The translations under genes were made by a program, and so were the position numbers. This document shows positions 1-9,623 of a stretch of DNA of 9,623 nt, one piece after another. The notes beneath the pieces were generated by a model, which saw only the letters and a list, made by a program, of their open reading frames with translations, was not told the origin of the DNA and did no database searches. The stretch's first letter is position 1. Each line of letters begins with the position of its first letter. This DNA comes from a virus. Its lineage: Duplodnaviria; Heunggongvirae; Uroviricota; Caudoviricetes. The DNA lies in IMG/VR virus record IMGVR_UViG_2802429248_000004, positions 1 through 9,623 of that record; one strand, given 5' to 3'.

Positions 1-141
1 TTACTGCTTACACTGTAAGAACGCCGCAAACTCCGCTCCCCAGAAGCTCATCCGTATTTCGCACAGCGAACCGTGCAACATCCAGATGATGAGGATTGCC
101 GTCACGCAGAACGTGATGGCCGTAAGCGATTTTTGCGACAT
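1..141 (-). CDS. Hok/Gef-family type I toxin (small membrane peptide), 46 aa
   Basis: Reverse-strand ORF ATG at 139-141, TAA at 1-3, translated by hand as MSQKSLTAITFCVTAILIIWMLHGSLCEIRMSFWGAEFAAFLQCKQ. Hydrophobic N-terminal segment followed by SLCEIR and EFAAFLxCK closely matches the Hok family pattern as I recall it (R1 Hok ...SLCEIR...EVAAF...; HokA ...WMIRDSLCEL...ELAAFLACK). AAGGAG Shine-Dalgarno about 8 nt upstream on the coding strand. Not in the supplied ORF track because it is under the length cut-off. Confidence 0.7.
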   Translation of the reverse strand: MSQKSLTAITFCVTAILIIWMLHGSLCEIRMSFWGAEFAAFLQCKQ

Positions 142-271
142 AGCACTTGCTCCTTTTCCGGAGAGGCGCTAACCTTTCACTTGTCAAGGTAATGCGGTTA
201 GGGCCTCGGTTAAACAGAAATGTTTTCCGGGGCCTTTCCACATCTGGCCTTCGGGTATTCCCTCCGACCAT
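8..271 (-). CDS. mok-like reading frame overlapping hok in another frame (putative translational coupler); possibly not translated
   Basis: 87-aa ORF from the track covers the whole hok ORF in a different frame and starts about 130 nt upstream, which is the hok/mok architecture known from plasmid R1. No convincing SD before the ATG at 269-271; no sequence similarity claimed. Confidence 0.2.
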   Translation of the reverse strand: MVGGNTRRPDVERPRKTFLFNRGPNRITLTSERLAPLRKRSKCYVAKIAYGHHVLRDGNPHHLDVARFAVRNTDELLGSGVCGVLTV

Positions 272-331
272 CAGCCGAAAGGCACCCGCGCGTAATCTAT
301 CTCTTTTTTGTTACTCCGGCAATTCTGCCTG

Positions 332-592
332 TTAATTTTGAGGTAAGGGCAAACTCATCTGATTGTTTCCTTTGTGTGAAGCTGGCAGTTCATGCCACGG
401 GATACCTTCTGAAGAGTGAGCGCCGGAGGCGTGTTTCGATGTGAATTTATGGAAAGCTTCCAGTGTTGAGAAGCATACGCCGCATTCTAGGTTGTTACAT
501 TGGTAATACTTTTGCCGCACGGTGTTTGAATCATTTTCCGGACGACTGGTGCGGATTCGGGCAGATGCGCCACAAAGCGGACAACGGAACAT
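332..592 (-). CDS. ogr: Ogr/Delta-family zinc-finger late-gene transcription activator
   Basis: 86-aa ORF beginning MFRCPLCGASARIRTSR...YYQCNNLEC, matching the P2 Ogr N-terminus (MFHCPLC...ARTSR...HQCQNVNC) with the four-Cys zinc-finger spacing. Strong SD AAGGGAGG 5 nt upstream of the ATG on the coding strand (plus-strand 596-603). Confidence 0.9.
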   Translation of the reverse strand: MFRCPLCGASARIRTSRPENDSNTVRQKYYQCNNLECGVCFSTLEAFHKFTSKHASGAHSSEGIPWHELPASHKGNNQMSLPLPQN

Positions 593-622
593 AGCGACCT
601 CCCTTACTGTGGTGCTTCTGTG

Positions 623-651
623 ATTTTAAGTCCTACTAGTACAGATTCCAA
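623..651 (-). promoter_or_regulatory. putative sigma70 promoter for ogr (-35 TTGGAA, 17-bp spacer, -10 TAAAAT on the minus strand)
   Basis: Hexamers read by eye on the reverse complement of 623-651, placed about 20-30 nt upstream of the ogr SD. No experimental support. Confidence 0.25.
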
Positions 652-776
652 CTGGCAAGGTGTTTTTAATAAGGAATGGTCGAAATCTTTACATGGTGAT
701 GAGTTTTTCCGAAAATAGCTCCACCCAACTTACTAGTGTATTTACAATAAATTTTATTTTAGTTCTGGAGTGTGAA

Positions 777-2015
777 ATGATATCGTTTATAACGAATAAT
801 ACAGGAGTTGTATTTAAGTATGAACCTGAAATAGGGAGTGTAAATTGGGTATGGAATGAATTTGAAACTAAAGAAACTGTAAGTATTTCTAAAGTGTTTC
901 ATTTCTATATTAGCGATTTGCTCAATTCCCCTTTACCTAACCAAGATTTTAATGATTATGCTTATGAGTTCCAATTCGGGACTTTTAGTGATGATTATAT
1001 TTTGATAAAGGGTCGTATATTAAATATTAAAAACGACTTGTATATTAGTAAAGATATCAAATTAAGTCGGGCAACCTTTGTTGCTGAGAGAAATGTTTCT
1101 ATTTTTGGTGGAATTTCGCGAATATTAAATCACAGTGACCCAATTTTTATTGGTGGAGAGGTTAAGGAGGCAATTCCTTCTGAAGTTTTTAGTGAGTTAC
1201 TGAGCAAATTTCCTAATTCATATGAATTGAATAACTATGCTAAGGCTAGAGTACACACAATTCTTGAACTATATTTAGATGGTATGAGAGATGCTCGAAG
1301 ACTTTACGATGCATACCTCAACAAAATAAAGCTAAAGAAAAAAAACAAACTTGATTTAAGCTGTATTAAAAAATTAGAGGTGGATAAATATATTTTTATT
1401 AGAGATAGCATTAAAAATGCTTTAGATACAAAGCAGAACATGTCTGAAAAAGAGTGGCAAGAACTGATGGTGCAGTTCCTTCCCCTTTTATTTCCCAAAT
1501 ATATTCTTGTGATAGAAAGCATCACTATCCATGATTACTATAGTTTTCCTGGCAAGAAAAGGAAACGATTCATAGATATAGGTTTGGTTGATGCTTGTGG
1601 CAATTTAGATATTATTGAAGTAAAAAAACCATTTGACAATAAGATATTGCGCAAGGCTAAGTATCGAGAGAATAACATACCAACTCCAGAGTTAAGTGGT
1701 AGTATTATGCAAGCTGAAAAATATCTCTTTCATTTATCAAAATGGGGAAGAAAAGGTGAAGATATCCTTACTAAAAAATATGCATCCAGACTACCTGATG
1801 GAATGAGTATTCATATTTCGTATCCCAAAGCGATTCTCATTATTGGTCGTGACCAGATTGATGATAGATATATGACAGAAGATCAAAAACTCGATTTCGA
1901 AATTATTAAGCGGAAATATACTAATATGATCGATATCATTACCTATGATGACCTCTTGAGACGGCTTGATCATACAATTTCAGCACTTACACTTAAAAAC
2001 GAAGCATCTGTGTAG
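777..2015 (+). CDS. AT-rich cargo gene: predicted PD-(D/E)xK nuclease, Shedu (DUF4263)-like candidate anti-phage defence protein; N-terminal half unassigned
   Basis: Long ORF in markedly AT-rich DNA between phage genes D and ogr. Track ORF starts at GTG 660, but ATG 777 has a GGAG SD 6 nt upstream and is preferred (alternative ATG 693). C-terminal half carries EKEWQELMVQFLPLLFP, then FIDIGLVD-x5-LDIIEVKKP (D ... E-V-K catalytic core, nt ~1575-1625), then MQAEKYL (QxxxY, nt ~1710-1724), then ILIIGRD and a terminal IITYDDLLRRL, a combination I recognise from DUF4263/Shedu nucleases. Stop TAG at 2013-2015. Confidence 0.75.
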   Translation: MISFITNNTGVVFKYEPEIGSVNWVWNEFETKETVSISKVFHFYISDLLNSPLPNQDFNDYAYEFQFGTFSDDYILIKGRILNIKNDLYISKDIKLSRATFVAERNVSIFGGISRILNHSDPIFIGGEVKEAIPSEVFSELLSKFPNSYELNNYAKARVHTILELYLDGMRDARRLYDAYLNKIKLKKKNKLDLSCIKKLEVDKYIFIRDSIKNALDTKQNMSEKEWQELMVQFLPLLFPKYILVIESITIHDYYSFPGKKRKRFIDIGLVDACGNLDIIEVKKPFDNKILRKAKYRENNIPTPELSGSIMQAEKYLFHLSKWGRKGEDILTKKYASRLPDGMSIHISYPKAILIIGRDQIDDRYMTEDQKLDFEIIKRKYTNMIDIITYDDLLRRLDHTISALTLKNEASV

Positions 2016-2057
2016 AAAGAAGAGTTTTGGTCTGGTGCGTCAACATAACGTTTGAAA

Positions 2058-2083
2058 CGTCCGCTTCTTTCACGAAGCGGATT
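2058..2083. terminator. candidate bidirectional stem-loop between the convergent cargo gene and gene D
   Basis: Inverted repeat TCCGCTTC (2060-2067) / GAAGCGGA (2074-2081) with a 6-nt loop; moderately U-rich flanks on both strands; lies in the 129-bp gap between two convergent stops. Confidence 0.3.
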
Positions 2084-2144
2084 CTCGGGTTAGCATTGTT
2101 CTGTGCTATAAACTTGGCAGTTTGAGTCAGCATATCTAAGTTAT

Positions 2145-3245
2145 TTACTCTGTTTCTGCTATCCATTCCGGGATTTTTGCCTCAAGCTCAAGCTGCGTGG
2201 TAAAGCCACTGTTATCAATGGTGTGCTCGGCTTTTGCAATAATCCAGCCCTGATTATCAATCTCGCTTTTAAATCCTGTTACCGTGCCATGCATTTCGGG
2301 GTAGAGTTCTGCACGTCCACGTGCCAGCGTGATGGAGAATGATGCGGCTCCGCGTTGTAGCTGCTGCCACTTTGCCGCCGCTGCACGTCTTGCTGCCTGC
2401 TCGTTCTGATAAGTCTTGCGTAACACAAACACGTTGCCTTCCGCACCTTCCATATAGTCACCTTCACGGCTGCTGCTTTTCTCCTTTTTCGGTTTGCGGC
2501 GTTTCACGCTGACTTTTTTCTTTTTCCCGTAATTAAGATCAAGCCAGTAAGCGCGTACCCCCGTATACGCTTCGCGGTCAGCAATGCGGAACTGATGGCG
2601 ATCGCCACTGCTGCGCGTGATGGCGAACGAGGGCAACGGCTGGCCCTGTGCGTTCACGCCACCGCCTGGCATGATGAATAACAGATTACCGCTTTTTACC
2701 GTAGTGATTGCGCCCAACATTTCCGCCATGCGCGTAAGGAAGGACATGTCGCTTTCTTCGGTCTGGTCGGCGTGGTCGATTTCAATATCCATCAGCATTT
2801 CGCTGATTTGCGGTTTCAGACCGTACCGATGAGCGATGGCGGATACCACGCGCTCAACGGTCACATCATGCCAGGACACTTCACGTTTAACGTTAAATTC
2901 ATCCCGAAAATCTGCGCTTCTGGCTGAAACAGTCAGCCTGTCCGGCGGTCCTTCGTGAGCGATTTCATCAACAATGTAAGTGCCTTTTTCTGTCAGCGGT
3001 TCTCCTTTCCAGCCAATGAGAACCGTCAGGCGCGCGCCCCGTGGCGGTAGCTGCAACTGACCATCTGCATCATCCAGCGTGATGGTAAGCTGGTCCGCCT
3101 CAAATCCCCGGTTGTCGGTCAGTGACAGGCTCATCAGGCGTTCTGCCACGCCGGACAGCGTTTTACCCTCCGCGAGAATATCAAAATCCGGCATTTTCAC
3201 GGGGTCTGTGCTCTGACTGAGCAATTGCATGGTGGTATCGGTCAT
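2145..3245 (-). CDS. D: P2 gpD-family late control / tail protein D
   Basis: Translation shares extended blocks with P2 gpD as I recall it (LTDNRGFEADQL, SWHD, FLTR, GVRAYW, REGDYMEGAEGNVF, SGFTTQLELE). Track ORF extends to 3377, but the ATG at 3243-3245 (MTDTTMQLL...) is preceded by a very strong SD (AGGGAGGGAG on the coding strand, plus-strand 3246-3258). Stop TAA at 2145-2147. Confidence 0.9.
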   Translation of the reverse strand: MTDTTMQLLSQSTDPVKMPDFDILAEGKTLSGVAERLMSLSLTDNRGFEADQLTITLDDADGQLQLPPRGARLTVLIGWKGEPLTEKGTYIVDEIAHEGPPDRLTVSARSADFRDEFNVKREVSWHDVTVERVVSAIAHRYGLKPQISEMLMDIEIDHADQTEESDMSFLTRMAEMLGAITTVKSGNLLFIMPGGGVNAQGQPLPSFAITRSSGDRHQFRIADREAYTGVRAYWLDLNYGKKKKVSVKRRKPKKEKSSSREGDYMEGAEGNVFVLRKTYQNEQAARRAAAAKWQQLQRGAASFSITLARGRAELYPEMHGTVTGFKSEIDNQGWIIAKAEHTIDNSGFTTQLELEAKIPEWIAETE

Positions 3246-3402
3246 CTGCTCCCTCCCTGTGCGGCATGGTCGCATGTGTGTGCGGGCGGGGTTACTGCTT
3301 TTTGTTGTCGCCGGGCGGCAAGAACGGCGCAGGGGTGAGATTACGCGCGTGGTGGGTGATGATTGTTGCCGAATCATTTAACGGATACAAGGGGCTGAAG
3401 CT

Positions 3403-4587
3403 ATGAGTGAAACTCGTTTTCATGGTGCCCGTGTTACGGAAAATACCGACCTGGTAACAGCGATTAACGATGTTGATTCCAGCGTTATCGGTATCGTGGC
3501 AACGGCGGATGATGCGGACGCGAAGCTGTTCCCGCTGAACAAGCCCACACTGCTGACCCGCGTCAATGACGTGCTGGGAAAATGCGGAACAACGGGGACG
3601 CTTTATCGTGCGCTTAAGGCCATCGCAGACCAGGTGAGCACAAAGGTGATCGTCGTTCGCGTGGCTGAACACAAAGAAGAAGACGGAAAGACGCAGGATC
3701 AACTGGTTATCGGTGGTTCTGAGGATGACGGCAGCTATACGGGGATGTATGCGCTGCTTGTTGCAGAGCAGGATGAAAGCATCGGATACCGTCCGCGTAT
3801 TCTGGCCGCGCCGGAGCTGGACACGGAGGCGGTGACAAAATCCCTGTGCGTGATTGCGGGTAAACTGCGCGCGTTTGTGTATGCCTCATGTCACGGCTGT
3901 AACACGATGGCTGAAGCGATTACCTACCGCCAGAAATTCAACGAACGTGAAGTGATGCTCTTGTGGCCGGACTTCATCGCCTACAACCCGAAAGGTGGCG
4001 AAAACGAAACGTTCCCCGCGCCTGCCTATGCGTGCGGCCTTCGTGCGTACATTGACCATGAGCAGGGCTGGCACAAATCGCTGTCCAACGTTCCGGTTAA
4101 AAATGTGCTGGGGATGTCCAGGCATGTGTTCTGGTCGTTACAGGCCGAAGACAGCGATGCCAACAGCCTCAACAACAAAGAAATCACGACCATTATTCGT
4201 CGCAACGGGTTCCGCTTCTGGGGCAACCGCACACCGGAAACGAACGCCTACATCTTTGAGGTGTATACCCGAACCGCACAGGTGCTGGCTGATTCAATTG
4301 CGGAAGCGCAGTTTGAAACCATCGACAGTCCACTGACGCCTGCGAACGTGAAGGATGTTATCAGTGCCATCAGGGCAAAGCTGGATTCACTGGTTACTGC
4401 CGGGAAACTGATTGGCGCGGAGTGCTGGTATGACGTGGTGGATAACAGCACCACGGATTTACGTCAGGGGCGTGTGCGTATTCGCTACAAATATACGCCC
4501 GTTCCGCCACTGGAAGACATGGAGCTTTACCAGACGTTTACTGATGAATACTTTGAACCCGCATTTGCGGTGTTGGGAGGTGCCTGA
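3403..4587 (+). CDS. FI: contractile tail sheath protein (P2 FI family)
   Basis: 394 aa; strong similarity to P2 FI throughout as I recall it (DADA..FPLNKP, RILA.PELDTEAV, KLRAF.YAS.HGC, GWHK.LSNV, IRR.GFRFWGNRT, YTPVPPLE). SD AAGGGG 9 nt upstream. Confidence 0.95.
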   Translation: MSETRFHGARVTENTDLVTAINDVDSSVIGIVATADDADAKLFPLNKPTLLTRVNDVLGKCGTTGTLYRALKAIADQVSTKVIVVRVAEHKEEDGKTQDQLVIGGSEDDGSYTGMYALLVAEQDESIGYRPRILAAPELDTEAVTKSLCVIAGKLRAFVYASCHGCNTMAEAITYRQKFNEREVMLLWPDFIAYNPKGGENETFPAPAYACGLRAYIDHEQGWHKSLSNVPVKNVLGMSRHVFWSLQAEDSDANSLNNKEITTIIRRNGFRFWGNRTPETNAYIFEVYTRTAQVLADSIAEAQFETIDSPLTPANVKDVISAIRAKLDSLVTAGKLIGAECWYDVVDNSTTDLRQGRVRIRYKYTPVPPLEDMELYQTFTDEYFEPAFAVLGGA

Positions 4588-5099
4588 TGGCTGTGCCAAA
4601 ACATCTTCGCTTTTTTACGCTGTTTGTGGATGGTGAAAACGAAGTGGGTAAGGTGACGTCCGTCACTCTGCCTAAGCTGACGCGCAAAACCGACAGCTAC
4701 CGGGGTGGTGGCATGATGGGGGCGGTAAGTATTGATCTCGGTCTGGACGACTCCGCGCTTGATGCGAGCTTTGTCATGGGGGGCGCAGTTCGTGAGCTGT
4801 TCCTTAAGTATGGCGGCACGATTGACGGCACGCTGCTGCGTTTTGCGGGTGAATACTACACCGATGCAGAAAGCGACCTGTATGAAGTCGAAATGCGCGG
4901 ACGTGTGACGGAAATTGATATGGGGGAAGCCAAACAGGGCGAAGCCACATCACACACTTACGCCATTAAAAACACCTACTACAAGCTGAGTGTTAACGAT
5001 CGCCCGTTGTGGGAGATTGACCTGCTGAACTTCATTTACCGGAAGGACGGCAAGGACATTGCGCCCGATCGCATCCGTTCCGCGCTTGGGCTTGGCTGA
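4587..5099 (+). CDS. FII: tail tube protein (P2 FII family)
   Basis: 170 aa; ATG overlaps the FI stop (TGATG); SD GGGAGG 6 nt upstream; similarity to P2 FII (VTSVTLPKLTRK..YRGGGM, LRFAG.Y, EIDMGEAKQGE). Double stop TGATAA. Confidence 0.95.
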   Translation: MAVPKHLRFFTLFVDGENEVGKVTSVTLPKLTRKTDSYRGGGMMGAVSIDLGLDDSALDASFVMGGAVRELFLKYGGTIDGTLLRFAGEYYTDAESDLYEVEMRGRVTEIDMGEAKQGEATSHTYAIKNTYYKLSVNDRPLWEIDLLNFIYRKDGKDIAPDRIRSALGLG

Positions 5100-5154
5100 T
5101 AAGTAATATGCAGGCGGCGCAGTGCGTCGCCTCTGACTGAAAAGGAGACCACTG

Positions 5155-5529
5155 ATGAAAAACATCGATACTGAAACCCAGAATAACACCGTGGCGGATG
5201 ATGTGACGGCAGATGAGGATATGGCTGTCGAACGTGGTGTAAAACTTTCCCGGCCAATTGAGCGTGGCGGCGAAAAAATCACGTATGTGGAGATCACCGG
5301 GGCTATTGAGCAGGCTGGATCCCTGCGAGGTTTGTCGCTGTCTGATGTGCTGAATCTGAAAGCGGATACCATGTTCACGCTGTTGCCTCGCGTGACTTCG
5401 CCACGACTGGATGAAGTGATGATTAAAAAAATGTCGTCACGCGATTTTATTCAGTTGTGCGCTGTGGCTGTAAATTTTATGAGCGAGCCAGACTCTGGCG
5501 CGAAGAGCGTGCAGGAGACGGCAGCGTAA
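5155..5529 (+). CDS. E: tail assembly chaperone gpE (P2 E family)
   Basis: 124-aa ORF with AGGAG SD 7 nt upstream; sits between tube and tape-measure genes as in P2/lambda (E or G chaperone position); its 3' end overlaps an RBS-less ORF in the -1 frame. Confidence 0.85.
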   Translation: MKNIDTETQNNTVADDVTADEDMAVERGVKLSRPIERGGEKITYVEITGAIEQAGSLRGLSLSDVLNLKADTMFTLLPRVTSPRLDEVMIKKMSSRDFIQLCAVAVNFMSEPDSGAKSVQETAA

Positions 5530-5693
5530 TCACCCTGGTGTGCTTTGAGCACATCGAAGATCTGGTGGCGGATATTGCCGCCATTTTTAACTGGTCGCCC
5601 GCCGAAATCTTCATGATGACGCCCGGCGAAGTGGTTAGCTGGCGTGAGCGGGCGGCACTTCGCAGCGGGAATGCAGACAATGAAGACTCTTGA
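5427..5693 (+). CDS. gpE' extension, expressed as an E+E' fusion by programmed -1 ribosomal frameshift
   Basis: The -1 frame relative to E is open from 5427 (just after a TAA at 5424-5426) to TGA at 5691-5693 and has no credible independent start or SD; it overlaps the 3' end of E and ends at the tape-measure start. This mirrors P2 E/E' and lambda G/GT. Candidate slippery sites in the E frame: A7 run at 5425-5431 and A-AAT-TTT at 5472-5478. Confidence 0.5.
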   Translation, partial: KNVVTRFYSVVRCGCKFYERARLWREERAGDGSVITLVCFEHIEDLVADIAAIFNWSPAEIFMMTPGEVVSWRERAALRSGNADNEDS

Positions 5694-8487
5694 TATCCGG
5701 GTCGCTTTCAGCGCCGTTGACAGGCTGACCCGGCCTGCCGAAAACGCCCGCCGCCTGATGGGGCAGTTTGGTGACTCTATCCAGCGAACGCAGGGGGCGA
5801 TCAAAAATCTCGAGCGTCAGGCGCGTTCATTTGAGCGCGCCCGTGACGCTGTCAGTAAAGCGGATGCGGGCATCGTAAAAGCACGACGCCAGCTTAACGC
5901 CCTTAATCAGTTACAACGCACGGGTACAGTGCTCAGCGAAAAACAGCAAAAGCTGATGCAGCAGTTAAGCACCCGGCTTGAACGCCTGAATGAATCGCGC
6001 ACACGGGAAATTCAGAAAATGCGGGAGCTTGGCGGAGAGCTGAAACGCCACGGCATTTCCCTGACAGGCAGCGATAACACCATCCAGCAGACCATCAGAC
6101 GCACCGAACAGTACAACAACCAGCTTGAACGCGAACGGCAGGCGCTTGCGCGTGTAACGCGGGCGCGTGAGCGGTATTCGCGCGCGCAGGAAATTGCGGG
6201 AAAACTGAAAACAGGTGGTGCGCTGGCAATTGGTGCGGCAGCGGCTGGCGGTTATGCCGCCGGGCGTTTTTTGCAGCCTGCGATCGGGTTCGGGAAAGAG
6301 ATGTCCCGCGTTCAGGCGCTGACGCGAATCGACAAAAACAGCCCGCAGTTTAAGGCGCTGCGTGAGCAGGCGTTAAAACTTGGCTCTGAAACGCAGTTCA
6401 CCGCAGGCGATGCCGCCAGTGGACAGGCATTTCTTGCAATGGCTGGCTTCACTCCGCAGGCCATTCAGGCTGCGCTTCCCGGCGTACTGAGCATGGCAAC
6501 GGCTGGCGGTATGGATCTCGGCGAGACGGCAGATATTGGCTCAAATATCCTGACGCAGTTCGGCCTTTCTGCTGACCAGATGGACCGGGTCGGTGACACA
6601 CTCACCGCAGCGTTTACCCGTACCAACACTGACCTTCGCGCACTGGGCGAAACCATGAAATATGCAGGTCCGGTGGCGGGTAAGCTGGGAATATCGCTGG
6701 AGCAGGCCGCAGCGATGGCTGGCGTGCTGGCGAATATGGGCATCAGAGGGAGTGATGCCGGGACGGCAATGCGTGCCAGCCTGGCTCGTCTGGCATCACC
6801 GCCAAAGGCAGCGGCAGAAGCGCTGAAAGAGCTGGGCGTGTCCGTCTCGGATGCCGGGGGCAAAATGCGCCCGATGGAAGATCTGCTGGCTGACCTTTAT
6901 AAAGCTACCCGCAAATACGGGGAAGTTGACCGGGTATCCTTCTTTAAGGACATCGCCGGGGAAGAGGCTTTCACATCGTTTATGGCACTCGTTGATGCGG
7001 CGGGTGACGGTTCCTTACCCAAACTGAGAAAAGAACTTGAGGGCGCACGCGGTGAGGCTGAACGCACGGCAAAGGTTATGGCCGACAACCTTGATGGCGA
7101 CCTGAAAAATCTCGACAGCGCATGGGAAGGTCTTCGTATTCGCATCAGTGATCTGGTTGACGGTTCGCTGCGTTCTGTCACGCAGTGGCTAACGCGGGTG
7201 GTCTCAAAAGTGACGGCACTGGCGCAGGCCCATCCTGTACTGACGCGCCAGCTACTGATTGCAGGCGGTGCGCTGCTGGCAGTGACTGCAACCGTAGGCT
7301 CGTTGTCGCTTGCTCTTGGTGTGCTTGCTGGCCCACTGGCAAAACTGCGTCTTGGTTTTTCCCTCCTGACCGGATCAATGAATGCTGTCAGGCTCCTGCC
7401 TGCACTATGGGGAATGGTGACGGGTTCCGTTTCGTTACTGGGGGGCGCTATCGGGGCGCTGTTCAGCCCGGTCGGATTGATTGCTGCTGCGTTTGTGGCT
7501 GCGGCAGTTCTCATCTGGAAATACTGGGAACCCATCAAGGCGTTTTATGCCGGGGTGTTCAGTGGGATTATGGAACGGCTGGCTCCGTTGCGCGAAACCT
7601 TTGAACGGTTCGGTCCTGTTTTTGATGTCGTGCGCGATGGGATTATTCAGGTCTTTAACTGGTTTAAATCGCTGCTGTCACCGATGGAGTCCAGCAAGGA
7701 AACGCTGGATAAATGTACCAGTGCTGGCGAGATATTCGGTAACGTTCTTGGTGGCGCGCTACAGCTTGTTCTGACGCCTGCAAAAATGTTGCTGGATACG
7801 CTGGCGTGGATACTTGAAAAACTTGGCGTCCTTCCGGATGAAGCGGAAAGGGCGCGCAAGAAAATCGAAGACGCGCAGCGTGCGGCCATTCTTCAGGATA
7901 AGGTCGCTCTGTTTCAGGGAGACATTGCGAAAATCAATCCGCCGAAGCCTGTGGAAAATGGCAATGGCACCGGAGGTGATAACCCCAAAGACAACAAACC
8001 GCTCACAGACAGCAATACCGGTACGCTACGCAGACTAAGCAAAATTGCTGATAACACAGGCAAGCTGGTTGATGAGACGAAAAAACGCATTGGCCCCGGT
8101 GATATTGTCTTTAAGAACCTGCCCCGCGCACTTGCCGTTCGTGGGGAGTGGCAGGATCGGAAGATTGCGCAGGCCAGTAAGCCTGCTCCCGCAATTAATA
8201 TCACCCCCGTGGTTCCGGCTCCGCTGCCTCCGGCGCTGGTCCCTGTTGTTGCGGCCAGCTCCCGCCCGGTGGCGGAGGCCATACGATCGCCAGTGGCATC
8301 AGTTCCTGCAACTTCCCGTAACCGGGAGCCTGTTACCTCCGGATTTGGTGGTGAAATTCATGTCCATCTGCATAACGTTGTTACGCAGAATCCCCGCGAA
8401 CTGGCGAAACTGGTCGGTGAAATGGTCAGGGCAGAATTGGAACGACGCGACCGTGCCGGACGTGGCAGTTTTTACGATAAAGATTGA
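5680..8487 (+). CDS. T: tail tape measure protein (P2 gpT family)
   Basis: ~935-aa ORF directly after E/E'; coiled-coil-like N-terminal third, a central block of hydrophobic/Gly-Ala-rich segments, and a Pro/Ala-rich C-terminus, typical of tape measure proteins. Start uncertain: ATG 5680 (preferred, GGGA about 9 nt upstream), ATG 5671 or GTG 5644 in the same frame. Confidence 0.9.
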   Translation: MKTLDIRVAFSAVDRLTRPAENARRLMGQFGDSIQRTQGAIKNLERQARSFERARDAVSKADAGIVKARRQLNALNQLQRTGTVLSEKQQKLMQQLSTRLERLNESRTREIQKMRELGGELKRHGISLTGSDNTIQQTIRRTEQYNNQLERERQALARVTRARERYSRAQEIAGKLKTGGALAIGAAAAGGYAAGRFLQPAIGFGKEMSRVQALTRIDKNSPQFKALREQALKLGSETQFTAGDAASGQAFLAMAGFTPQAIQAALPGVLSMATAGGMDLGETADIGSNILTQFGLSADQMDRVGDTLTAAFTRTNTDLRALGETMKYAGPVAGKLGISLEQAAAMAGVLANMGIRGSDAGTAMRASLARLASPPKAAAEALKELGVSVSDAGGKMRPMEDLLADLYKATRKYGEVDRVSFFKDIAGEEAFTSFMALVDAAGDGSLPKLRKELEGARGEAERTAKVMADNLDGDLKNLDSAWEGLRIRISDLVDGSLRSVTQWLTRVVSKVTALAQAHPVLTRQLLIAGGALLAVTATVGSLSLALGVLAGPLAKLRLGFSLLTGSMNAVRLLPALWGMVTGSVSLLGGAIGALFSPVGLIAAAFVAAAVLIWKYWEPIKAFYAGVFSGIMERLAPLRETFERFGPVFDVVRDGIIQVFNWFKSLLSPMESSKETLDKCTSAGEIFGNVLGGALQLVLTPAKMLLDTLAWILEKLGVLPDEAERARKKIEDAQRAAILQDKVALFQGDIAKINPPKPVENGNGTGGDNPKDNKPLTDSNTGTLRRLSKIADNTGKLVDETKKRIGPGDIVFKNLPRALAVRGEWQDRKIAQASKPAPAINITPVVPAPLPPALVPVVAASSRPVAEAIRSPVASVPATSRNREPVTSGFGGEIHVHLHNVVTQNPRELAKLVGEMVRAELERRDRAGRGSFYDKD

Positions 8488-8499
8488 GGAGTCATGGCC

Positions 8500-8988
8500 A
8501 TGATGATGATCTACGGCATGTTTGTTTTTGAGCTGCGCACATTGCCGCATCAGCAGTTACAGCAAAATAAAAGCTGGCGACATGTGAAAAATGAACGCGT
8601 TAACCGTTCAGCAAGCTGGCAGTATATCGGGGCTGGCGATGATCGTATTGTTCTTTCTGGTGTGCTTTATCCTGAAATTACAGGTGGCGAAGTGTCGCTG
8701 TCTCTGCTGGCCACGCAGGCGTATACCGGACGCCCCTGGCCTCTGATTGATGGCGTCGGGCAGATTTACGGCATGTATGTCCTGACCGAAACGAATACGA
8801 CCCGTTCCGAGTTTGATCGCTACGGTAAGGCGAAAAAGATAGAATTTTCACTGACCCTTGAACGCTGTGATGAGGATTTGCGGGAGCGCCTGCAATCCTC
8901 ATCGTTCAGCGATATGCTGTCCGGCTTCAAAGATAAGGTCACATCATCCCTTAACAGCGCGGCCAGCTCCGTTAAAGGGTTGTTTTGA
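8500..8988 (+). CDS. U: tail protein gpU (P2 U family, tail terminator/tube-completion)
   Basis: Similarity to P2 gpU (MMM..G.FVF.L.T.P.Q.LQ...W.H, ITLSG.LYPE.TGG, IYGM.V). GAGGAG SD at 8486-8491 fits the ATG at 8500 (the MMM start, as in P2 U) better than the track start at 8494. Confidence 0.9.
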   Translation: MMMIYGMFVFELRTLPHQQLQQNKSWRHVKNERVNRSASWQYIGAGDDRIVLSGVLYPEITGGEVSLSLLATQAYTGRPWPLIDGVGQIYGMYVLTETNTTRSEFDRYGKAKKIEFSLTLERCDEDLRERLQSSSFSDMLSGFKDKVTSSLNSAASSVKGLF

Positions 8989-8995
8989 CTTAATG

Positions 8996-9027
8996 CAAAA
9001 CCGCTAATAAACATATTGGCGGTTTTG
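8996..9027. terminator. bidirectional rho-independent terminator-like hairpin between convergent gpU and tfa
   Basis: 14-bp stem CAAAACCGCTAATA / TATTGGCGGTTTTG with one G-U position and a 4-nt loop AACA; A-tract on one side and T-tract on the other; lies in the 59-bp gap between the U stop (8988) and the tfa stop (9048). Confidence 0.45.
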
Positions 9028-9047
9028 TTCCTTAAATCATCTTGCCT

Positions 9048-9623
9048 TTACACTAATTCTGGCCATTCGATATCAGGGGCATTTTCCGGCTGAACGCGAT
9101 TCAGTAGCACACGGTATTTTTTCCAGTGTGTCAGGCTTAACTTTTCTTCCTCGGTAGCCATATCTAAATCGACAGCATCCTGCAGCATGGCAATGATTTC
9201 ACCTGCATATGCAATCTGCTCTTTCTTCTGAGACTCAGCCGCTCTGACAAGTGCATCACGCTCTGCATTCTCATCATTCACCCACGCATTGCCGTTCCAT
9301 TTCTGATAATCCCCCTCCGGGGAAATGGCTGTCACGTCTGGAGGTAATGCGCCAAGTTCAGAGATATAAATGGCTGCTCCCGTTTTCGTTTCATAGACGG
9401 TCTTTCCGCGATGGTCTTCCATCAGTTCCCATTTCATTTCATCTGCATTGAAAACGGCTGCATAACCCGCCGGAATATCAGGCGGTGCAATATCTGTACT
9501 GTTTGCAGGCAGACCTGTATGCGGCGGAATATATGCGTCACTTTCACCAATAAATTCATTGGTTCCATCAAGTAAATTGAAAACGCGGATCGTTTGTGCT
9601 TCTGCACTCATTCTGAAAGCCAT
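9048..9623 (-). CDS. tfa: tail fibre assembly protein (Tfa; TfaE-like N-terminus with a P2 gpG-like C-terminus)
   Basis: 191 aa; N-terminus [53 protein letters not shown] closely matches E. coli TfaE-type proteins as I recall them; C-terminus ([18 protein letters not shown]...PDIEWPE) resembles P2 gpG. The start codon is the last three bases of the window, so the upstream region and the tail fibre gene itself are out of view. Confidence 0.9.

Follow-up and report, generated by a model that had tools for sequence, protein, structure and literature searches.

Why should two genes that stand side by side in phage P2 be parted by a single AT-rich gene in one of its relatives? The question is raised by a Caudoviricetes record of IMG/VR, IMGVR_UViG_2802429248_000004 (positions 1 to 9,623), and the whole stretch of 9,623 nucleotides (nt) is referred to below as the window. 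In P2, the tail gene D and the late-gene activator gene ogr lie on the same strand, 81 nt apart, with the annotated ogr promoter in the spacer, just as a preliminary description of the window had stated. In the window, about 1.5 kb stands between them, and this description had read the position as an insertion site for cargo genes. Our analysis leads to the conclusion that positions 617-2134 are very probably a single-gene Shedu defence cassette in a hypervariable slot between D and ogr of a P88-like Escherichia coli prophage, and we propose below how such cassettes may be expressed, act and spread. The slot is laid out as follows.

332-592, minus strand: ogr, Ogr/Delta zinc-finger late-gene activator of 86 amino acids, left anchor of the slot (Pfam PF04606, 52.3 bits; PHROG 603, transcriptional regulator)
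617-2134, no strand: insert proper, absent from phage P88 and other empty-site relatives (blastn breakpoints against loci L001-L004; gap catalogue)
777-2015, plus strand: sduA, low-GC open reading frame and sole gene between ogr and D, encoding a Shedu defence nuclease of 412 amino acids (PADLOC, Pfam and PDB matches)
2145-3245, minus strand: D, tail/baseplate-hub "late control" gene of 366 amino acids, right anchor of the slot (Pfam PF05954, Phage_GPD; PHROG 52, 550 bits; gene call)

The insert and its Shedu gene

Positions 1-616 and 2135-3400 of the window are collinear with P88, in which about 8 nt stand where 617-2134 lies, confirming the supposed insertion of about 1.5 kb. The inserted segment has a GC content of 31-35%, compared with about 53% for the backbone. 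In empty relatives the distance from the D stop codon to the ogr ATG is 43-45 nt. The GC fraction is 0.28-0.34 across approximately 600-1950 compared with 0.50-0.60 in the tail genes, so that the AT-rich gene of the preliminary description corresponds to a real compositional break. The same holds across relatives, where the mean GC fraction is 0.354 for cassettes and 0.536 for the D gene; all cassettes are low in GC (0.31-0.42, versus 0.53-0.54 for D).

The product of the inserted gene matched the PADLOC SduA model (PDLC04067) from end to end (691.5 bits, model positions 1-405 of 407), the Pfam family SduA_C (PF14082, the DUF4263 PD-(D/E)xK nuclease; 109.6 bits against a cut-off of 27, residues 222-394), and the E. 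coli Shedu protein EcSduA (PDB 8PS4, E = 1e-154). Residues 3-183 matched the crystallised N-terminal domain (8PS6, E = 1.7e-58). The full-length protein is therefore predicted to have two domains, an N-terminal DNA-end clamp and a C-terminal DUF4263 nuclease. It is 61% identical to EcSduA over 400 residues, and all six catalytic residues listed for EcSduA by Loeff et al. (bioRxiv 10.1101/2023.08.10.552762) are kept: E224, Q228, D267, E281, K283 and Q312 correspond to E226, Q230, D269, E283, K285 and Q314. Judged by these matches, the window gene is a complete Shedu nuclease with an intact predicted active site.

The true start is the ATG at 777, with a GGAG Shine-Dalgarno motif (766-769) seven bases upstream; longer versions of the reading frame starting at 660 or 701 are unsupported by homologues. 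One substantial open reading frame lies between the terminal repeats described below, and the system is thus a single-gene one. EcSduA guards against phages T2 and T6 without abortive infection. By homology with it, the window protein would form a tetramer that clamps free double-stranded DNA ends and nicks them, and nicking of this kind would block phages in which linear DNA or intermediates of recombination-dependent replication become exposed.

Occupancy of the D-ogr slot in related prophages

The cassette DNA gave no megablast match among 5,426 complete E. coli genomes, so the catalogue of related loci had to be anchored on the flanks. D and Ogr were used as anchors in 143 loci, the interval between them was measured and catalogued, and cassettes were sorted into types (80% identity, 70% coverage). 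In the IMG/VR sample, which comprises the best 80 of 518 matches and is not random, 77 loci had a D gene at least 98% identical to that of the window. The slot was empty in 42 of these near-identical loci and occupied in the other 35, by 18 cassette types, which bears out the notion of a cargo hotspot. All sources together yielded 20 cassette types in this lineage.

The second sample consisted of evenly spaced RefSeq entries and provided 38 full-length loci from complete E. coli genomes. About 18 of the 38 were empty (span of about 7.5 kb) and about 20 carried inserts of 1.1-5.1 kb. The cargo in the complete genomes included TIR, PIN, DUF3800, P-loop NTPase and SIR2 proteins, and in addition a YecA-family protein, the four-gene HxsABCD radical-SAM system, and variants disrupted by insertion sequences (IS). 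Slot occupancy was about 50% in both datasets. The cassettes, of more than 20 unrelated kinds, measure 1-5 kb, and prophages with different slot contents were otherwise 96-99% identical. Comparison of relatives anchored on D and ogr, the check put forward in the preliminary description, thus favours a hotspot, and the second sample agrees with the first: the relatives are not uniform in the gene they carry, and the break in GC content is real.

Could the gene instead be an ordinary moron confined to one lineage, taken up a single time by illegitimate recombination and passed on by descent, with no special slot involved? The exact Shedu allele is indeed rare, being absent from the 5,426 complete E. 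coli genomes, and it is always at the same position. The exact SduA protein was found on 8 contigs and lies between D and ogr on all 4 that have both flanks; on a fifth, truncated contig, the adjoining partial gene aligns to D. The cassette catalogue nevertheless already contradicts a single acquisition. At least 20 unrelated cassettes stand at the identical junction in near-identical backbones, occupancy is about 50% in two datasets, and the termini are conserved across unrelated cargo. We therefore consider the moron explanation highly improbable.

According to the preliminary description, the insert runs opposite to the late genes. This is correct for the Shedu cassette, but does not hold for the slot as such, in which 12 cassette types are oriented opposite to D and ogr and 8 are co-directional with them. 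The same cassette was not seen in both orientations anywhere in the catalogue.

The slot is active in the P88-like lineage of E. coli. In other species and genera, where D is 60-80% identical, 45 of 51 loci were empty. The exception is Providencia, four loci of which (L129, L135, L141 and L142) have a conserved insert of about 1.33 kb with 26% GC between D and ogr. The insert of L141 and L142 codes for a polytopic membrane protein (406-408 amino acids) without a family match, while no comparably long open reading frame was found in the insert of L129 and L135, and the terminal repeats of the E. coli type are absent from the Providencia inserts. The Providencia insert may reflect a separate and invariant use of this junction, with superinfection exclusion or surface modification as conceivable roles. 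Two records assigned to Firmicutes, one titled Vagococcus sp. WN89Y (L090) and the other a metagenome-assembled genome of Planococcaceae (L136), contain E. coli-type cassettes next to a D gene 97-99% identical to that of the E. coli prophage. They are most likely due to contamination or mis-binning.

Cargo of the slot

Of the 20 cassette types, five match PADLOC models: Shedu, Thoeris I (ThsA and ThsB), a bSEFIR-like TIR protein, a PifA-like KAP NTPase, and PDC-S31. Pfam matches in other types were to PIN_4 and PIN_12 (PIN domains occur in two types), DUF3800, GmrSD_N together with HNH, HetE-N with a 930-residue partner protein, a ParA-like ATPase (AAA_31), and an alpha/beta hydrolase. In one type the match was to HEPN, weak and below threshold. 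Seven of the 20 types had no family match in either PADLOC or Pfam. Going by these assignments, many of the cargos are recognised or candidate anti-phage systems.

The seven types without a match leave room for a different view, that the slot gathers assorted lysogenic-conversion or phage-benefit genes (toxins, metabolic genes, regulators), is not primarily anti-phage, and has Shedu as one passenger among others. The alpha/beta hydrolase, the ParA-like ATPase, the YecA-family protein and HxsABCD are not established defence genes either, and in Providencia the junction holds the conserved polytopic membrane protein. We consider this view unlikely. A quarter of the types (5 of 20) match PADLOC defence models, most of the others have nuclease or NTPase domains typical of defence islands (PIN, the weak HEPN, GmrSD-like, DUF3800), and the homologous Z/fun slot of P2-type phages, discussed below, has yielded validated defence systems (PMC9519451).

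The complete HxsABCD (His-Xaa-Ser) locus, in the order hxsD-hxsB-hxsC-hxsA, encodes two radical-SAM maturases and a repeat peptide. It fills the D-ogr slot in several E. coli genomes, among them NZ_CM142896.1 (L174, positions 2455-5852) and the complete-genome matches H65 and H83. Situated as it is in a defence hotspot, HxsABCD may count as a candidate defence system against phages.

The D-ogr slot was the only place in which close homologues (98-100% identity) of the cargo genes were found. Diverged homologues (67-85%) occur in other mobile-element contexts, in several cases with the repeat module still adjoining. A diverged Shedu homologue (70% identity) and a homologue of the HEPN-like cargo (84% identity) adjoin umuC/umuD-like genes in the viral contigs L151 and L170, which suggests a further cargo slot beside umuDC in another mobile element.

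Termini of the cassettes

The following elements lie at the ends of the insert.

625-633, minus strand: ogr-side copy of the junction core, consensus CAACTTAGA, here GGACTTAAA (junction alignment)
634-660, minus strand: ogr-side terminal repeat, consensus GTCAGTTGGAATCTGAGCTAGTA (alignment of 20 cassette types and the right inverted repeat, IRR, of P2-EC31)
2051-2142, minus strand: D-side terminal repeat module (nhmmer profile match, E = 2e-15; alignment)
2059-2082, no strand: hairpin with a 9-bp stem inside the D-side repeat (fold; conserved)
2135-2143, minus strand: second copy of the junction core, on the D side (TAACTTAGA) and adjoining the D stop codon (junction comparison)

Read from D to ogr, the empty site is TGA-GCAACTTAGAATAGCGGCAGCACC...ATG, and the occupied site is TGA-GCAACTTAGA/TGTATTAGCTCAGAC...(about 90 nt with the hairpin)...cargo...GTCAGTTGGAATCTGAGCTAGTACAACTTAGA/ATAGCGGCAGCACC...ATG. 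The core CAACTTAGA is present in a single copy in empty sites and once per junction in occupied ones. The outermost bases of the cassettes are mutually inverted repeats (TGTAyTAGCTCAGAC / GTCTGAGCTArTACA), and the same junction is common to all 20 cassette types, the cargos of which are unrelated.

Of 50 occupied loci, 35 have a match to the D-side repeat profile right behind the stop codon of D; among the 88 empty D-ogr sites there is none. Global pairwise identity of the repeat ends is barely above that of a random control, owing to indels. The homology of the repeats rests instead on profile E-values. The median pairwise identity of the termini is about 53-58%, compared with 96-97% for the backbone. 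In the window, the D-side module is shared with the unrelated cassette of L002, with homology reaching 2056, and the Shedu cassette shares part of its ogr-side end with a TIR cassette. A genome contains a median of one copy of the repeat, and at most three. A miniature inverted-repeat transposable element (MITE), an IS or a composite transposon was considered and rejected: the cassettes contain no transposase, the copy number of the repeat is low, and the core copies within a locus differ.

The termini are not confined to the D-ogr slot. The only match of the cassette DNA in the phage database was the "Z-region" record of P2-EC31 (AJ512677), in which an EcSduA-type Shedu gene lies between annotated left and right inverted repeats. 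The D-side module is homologous to the left of these repeats (IRL) and the ogr-side repeat to the right one. The D-side profile itself matched the P2-EC31 IRL (E = 7e-13) and IRR (E = 6e-07), and also a P2-type Z slot in L146. In three loci of other genera (L117, L122 and L131) the module lies about 5.7-6 kb upstream of D, at the place between G and FI that is classical for Z/fun. One P2-type prophage has two cargo genes in its Z slot, and there the module follows G, stands back-to-back between the cargo genes and precedes FI. These homologous inverted-repeat boundaries identify the D-ogr slot as the Z/fun cassette system at a second genomic position. The slot is not an independent invention; new here is that its cassettes share repeats of the Z/fun type. 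The EcSduA-type gene in the P2-EC31 Z-region likewise makes the structurally solved EcSduA family a Z/fun-slot gene. In AJ512677.1 (L143, 321-1537), the Z-region open reading frame is annotated to 1409, while SduA homology runs to about 1537, with the EcSduA C-terminus after 1400; the record probably holds a frameshift or a truncated annotation.

A part of the repeat of about 50 nt, containing the hairpin, also adjoins yeeP-like GTPase genes in CP4-type islands, in the Ag43/dynamin neighbourhood (L144 3497-3551, L145 3491-3543, L147 3497-3549, L148 3497-3538). The variable genes beside these repeats include one for a ParA-family protein distantly related to one of the D-ogr cargos.

The hairpin stem joins 2059-2067 to 2074-2082, with a folding energy of about -15 kcal/mol and z-scores of -2.6 (plus strand) and -4.3 (minus strand). 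Across 10 cassettes, 84% of cells are paired and four pairs are compensatory. The hairpin belongs to the conserved terminal repeat module and not to a gene-specific terminator; it may serve as a terminator, a recombination signal or a protein site.

Several results weigh against our reading of the slot and its ends. Besides the non-random IMG/VR sample, these include the two core copies of a locus, which differ by 1-4 nt and vary with cassette type. Such co-variation weakens the interpretation of CAACTTAGA as a target-site duplication and indicates that exchange takes in more than the stretch bounded by the repeats. In five of the 20 cassette types the D-side end scores under the threshold of the repeat profile. 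Covariation in the hairpin is not significant (33 of 500 shuffles reach it), and for this reason no structured RNA is claimed. The hairpin at 2058-2083 in the preliminary description, there called convergent, is real; it is not a canonical terminator, as the terminator scan made no call and a U-tract is absent on both strands. The transcriptional insulation of the insert, proposed in the same place, can consequently only be inferred.

The insertion site and the ogr promoter

The region between ogr and sduA, described earlier as a divergent promoter region (593-776), contains two promoter-like sites facing apart, both of them consensus matches only.

593-622, minus strand: ogr leader with Shine-Dalgarno sequence AAGGGAGG, present in empty and occupied loci (mean major-base frequency 0.83-0.98)
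623-651, minus strand: putative ogr promoter, -35 TTGGAA (651-646), 17-nt spacer, -10 TAAAAT (628-623) (promoter scan, hexamer conservation, P2 homology)
688-716, plus strand: candidate sigma-70 promoter of sduA, TTTACA-17-GAAAAT (consensus scan only)

The ogr -10 hexamer lies within the core common to empty sites and is homologous to the annotated P2 ogr -10, and the putative -35 hexamer is supplied by the ogr-side cassette end. In 16 cassette types the two hexamers stand in constant register, with conservation of 0.88 and 0.94, compared with 0.77 for the spacer and 0.66 upstream. In the empty site, the matching -35 position falls in the end of D and fits the consensus poorly. This arrangement puts the site of insertion within the putative ogr promoter, and we infer that an Ogr-independent promoter for ogr is restored by the end of the cassette. 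In mechanistic terms, insertion would split the ancestral ogr promoter, and the cassette end would give a new -35 at 17 nt from the kept -10. On the other side, sduA would be transcribed in the lysogen from a sigma-70 promoter of its own (688-716) and would not rely on the late transcription that Ogr activates.

Spread of the cassettes

Related prophages would acquire cassettes from one another chiefly through homologous recombination, which would take place in ogr, in the shared repeat modules and in the final few hundred bases of D. As homology that travels with the cargo, the repeat modules would also allow cassettes to pass among the Z/fun slot, the D-ogr slot and further mobile elements. 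In the last approximately 160 nt of D, nucleotide diversity (pi) is 0.008-0.019 for pairs of loci with the same cassette and 0.026-0.041 for pairs in different states, and the values converge beyond about 400 nt from the D stop codon. This analysis does not single out the account given here, as it fits recombination or recent common ancestry with distal recombination alike and cannot separate the two. The long D-side and the short ogr-side ends keep their places whatever the orientation of the cargo, and the segments that the Shedu cassette has in common with the L002 and TIR cassettes likewise speak for homologous recombination. Overall, the sequence comparisons point to cassettes spreading chiefly by homologous exchange within the lineage, and we rate this route above a dedicated mechanism.

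A dedicated recombinase or transposase, moving cassettes as discrete units by way of the terminal inverted repeats or hairpins and inserting them at the 9-nt core CAACTTAGA, is a possibility that we hold to be real, but well short of even. Such a mechanism would be integron-like or resemble a non-autonomous transposon, and would coincide with the site-specific view of Nilsson et al. 2004, to whom a review (PMC8987985) attributes the same interpretation in the statement quoted there. It would account for the precise junction, with one core in the empty site and one at each occupied junction in all 20 types, and for cassette ends that are mutually inverted. The same termini occur at G-FI and D-ogr in unrelated flanks and round each gene of the two-gene array, and the repeat module stays with its cargo in other mobile elements. 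The termini are also far more diverged than the backbone and thus very old relative to it, and an outward-facing -35 in a terminal repeat is an IS-like property. The evidence against is of several kinds. There is no recombinase gene in or beside the cassettes, and the repeat is low in copy number, unlike MITEs. Insertion in either orientation would not leave the ends in position while the cargo is oriented 12 to 8, and no cassette was seen in both orientations. The core copies of a locus are not identical, and linkage in the flank decays over a few hundred nt, as homologous recombination predicts. Homologous exchange thus remains the favoured route within the lineage; since the cassette system is present at a second genomic position, some dedicated mechanism would at least be needed to explain its arrival there.

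With a similar, tentative weight, the repeat and hairpin modules could define a mobile, integron-like system of defence-gene cassettes in Enterobacteria, in which a hypothetical phage or host recombinase inserts repeat-cargo-repeat units. In this version, which we likewise regard as doubtful though worth stating, the core would span the ogr -10 in P88-like phages and the G-FI junction in P2-like ones, the CP4/yeeP module would be included, and the cassette end would rebuild the promoter. No integrase was found within the loci around the slot. If the integron-like reading is true, the abundance of natural empty and occupied alleles makes the proposal of site-specific recombination at Z/fun directly testable.

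Prophage type and neighbouring genes

DNA matches and gene layout place the window at the right-hand end of a prophage of the P2 family, within the P88 group (genus Xuanwuvirus, Peduoviridae). In DNA searches, phage P88 and prophages of about one in three complete E. coli genomes matched the flanks of the insert at 94-97% identity, and the tail region of this prophage type was matched in 1,738 of the 5,426 genomes. On contigs encoding the exact cargo protein, the prophage is integrated next to ihfA. The remaining features of the window are these.

1-141, minus strand: hok/gef-family toxin gene, 46 amino acids (translation; Hok/Gef annotation in homologous loci; PF01848)
3403-8988, plus strand: tail genes FI, FII, E, T and U (window gene layout)
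9048-9623, minus strand: tail-fibre assembly gene G, adjoining U (window layout)

D and ogr keep the P2 relation, adjacent on the same strand, but the FI-U tail block is inverted relative to P2. This inversion makes the synteny P88-type (Xuanwuvirus) and not that of P2. With FI-FII-E-T-U inverted, the late-promoter architecture must also differ from that of P2. D and FI are divergent across a spacer of 157 nt (3246-3402), and U is convergent with the tail-fibre assembly gene (8989-9047). A simple inversion turning P2 synteny into P88 synteny with a D-ogr cassette was considered and discarded, as on paper it puts the cassette between FI and D.

In some near-identical relatives, a DNA invertase gene (Resolvase/HTH_7; L005 18227-18838, P88 record 26977-27564, equal to L150 6978-7565) and duplicated, opposed tail-fibre and assembly genes lie between U and the fibre genes. 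This region has the look of a host-range segment that can be inverted; in the window the corresponding space is just 60 nt. The homologous prophage of O157:H7 (H100-H107) matches only from window position 2900 on and has IS30/IS3 at the D end; this copy is degraded and without slot and ogr.

The hok/gef gene marks the prophage end beyond ogr and belongs to the context, outside the cassette. Upstream of it, within 1-331, is a mok/sok-type region, and about 80-84% identical copies of the hok/gef region occur in many Shiga toxin-converting phages. A scan of the whole window at Rfam gathering thresholds gave zero matches, including none to Sok, so the hairpin and the hok-adjacent region are not explained by any known RNA family.

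Implications of a third cargo position

Prophage hotspots are among the most productive sources of new anti-phage systems, and two had been documented for P2-like phages. The D-ogr slot is a third. It is borne by a prophage type whose tail region is matched in about a third of complete E. coli genomes, and it is occupied in about half of the sampled loci. Its two anchors, both of them short and conserved genes, make it easy to mine. At least seven cassette types are without a recognisable family, and HxsABCD, the YecA-family protein, HetE-N with its 930-residue partner and DUF3800 are not established defence systems. The shared terminal repeats provide a sequence handle for finding further slots and tracing the movement of defence cassettes between mobile elements. 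The common empty allele, which is that of phage P88 itself, offers a natural recipient for experiments.

Comparison with known systems

Integron attC cassettes and the T4-type PeSL ("promoter-early stem-loop") mobile regulatory cassettes are single genes, either lacking a promoter or bringing their own, with imperfect inverted repeats or stem-loops on both sides. By analogy, the D-ogr cassettes may be said to resemble both, in that they are stackable and their boundary elements recur round unrelated genes. Integrons combine attC hairpins with IntI and attI; here there is no integrase of the IntI type, no attI and no demonstrated attC architecture.

The cargo of the window is of a known kind. 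EcSduA (8PS4, 8PS5, 8PS6) has the same full-length, two-domain architecture, is likewise a single gene, and shares the catalytic residues. The window SduA is a diverged allele of this type, 61% identical, with DNA absent from the 5,426 complete E. coli genomes.

Other hotspots of the P2 and P4 phages lie elsewhere. The cos-proximal hotspot of P2 between gpA and gpQ (old/tin) and the psu-int hotspot of P4 (Rousset et al. 2022, PMC9122126) are likewise internal to prophages, have conserved core flanks, and hold short systems with known, candidate and unknown defence genes. They average 2.6-3.2 kb and often contain several systems, whereas the slot here mostly contains a single gene of 1-2 kb. 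Locus and flanking genes are different, and PMC9122126 describes no shared terminal repeats there.

Much closer is the Z/fun locus, the second defence-enriched locus of P2, at fun, from which Vassallo et al. 2022 validated defence systems (PMC9519451), and for which the review PMC8987985 quotes Nilsson et al. 2004 as proposing site-specific recombination. It has the same homologous inverted-repeat and hairpin modules, low-GC cargo of one or few genes in individually bracketed cassettes, and defence cargo including Shedu (the P2-EC31 Z open reading frame is 56-69% identical to the window protein). Z/fun sits between G and FI, while the slot here is between D and ogr; in the window the neighbour of G (9048-9623) is U, and FI (3403) points away from D. 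The slot described here further differs in its Xuanwuvirus backbone with an inverted FI-U block, in the insertion inside the ogr promoter, and in its common, clean empty allele. The D-ogr position coincides with none of the published hotspots (gpA-gpQ, G-FI, psu-int), and no description of it was found in the literature searched. Although its Shedu cargo was already known, the D-ogr slot is a third hotspot position in the P2 family, and one that is tied mechanistically to Z/fun.

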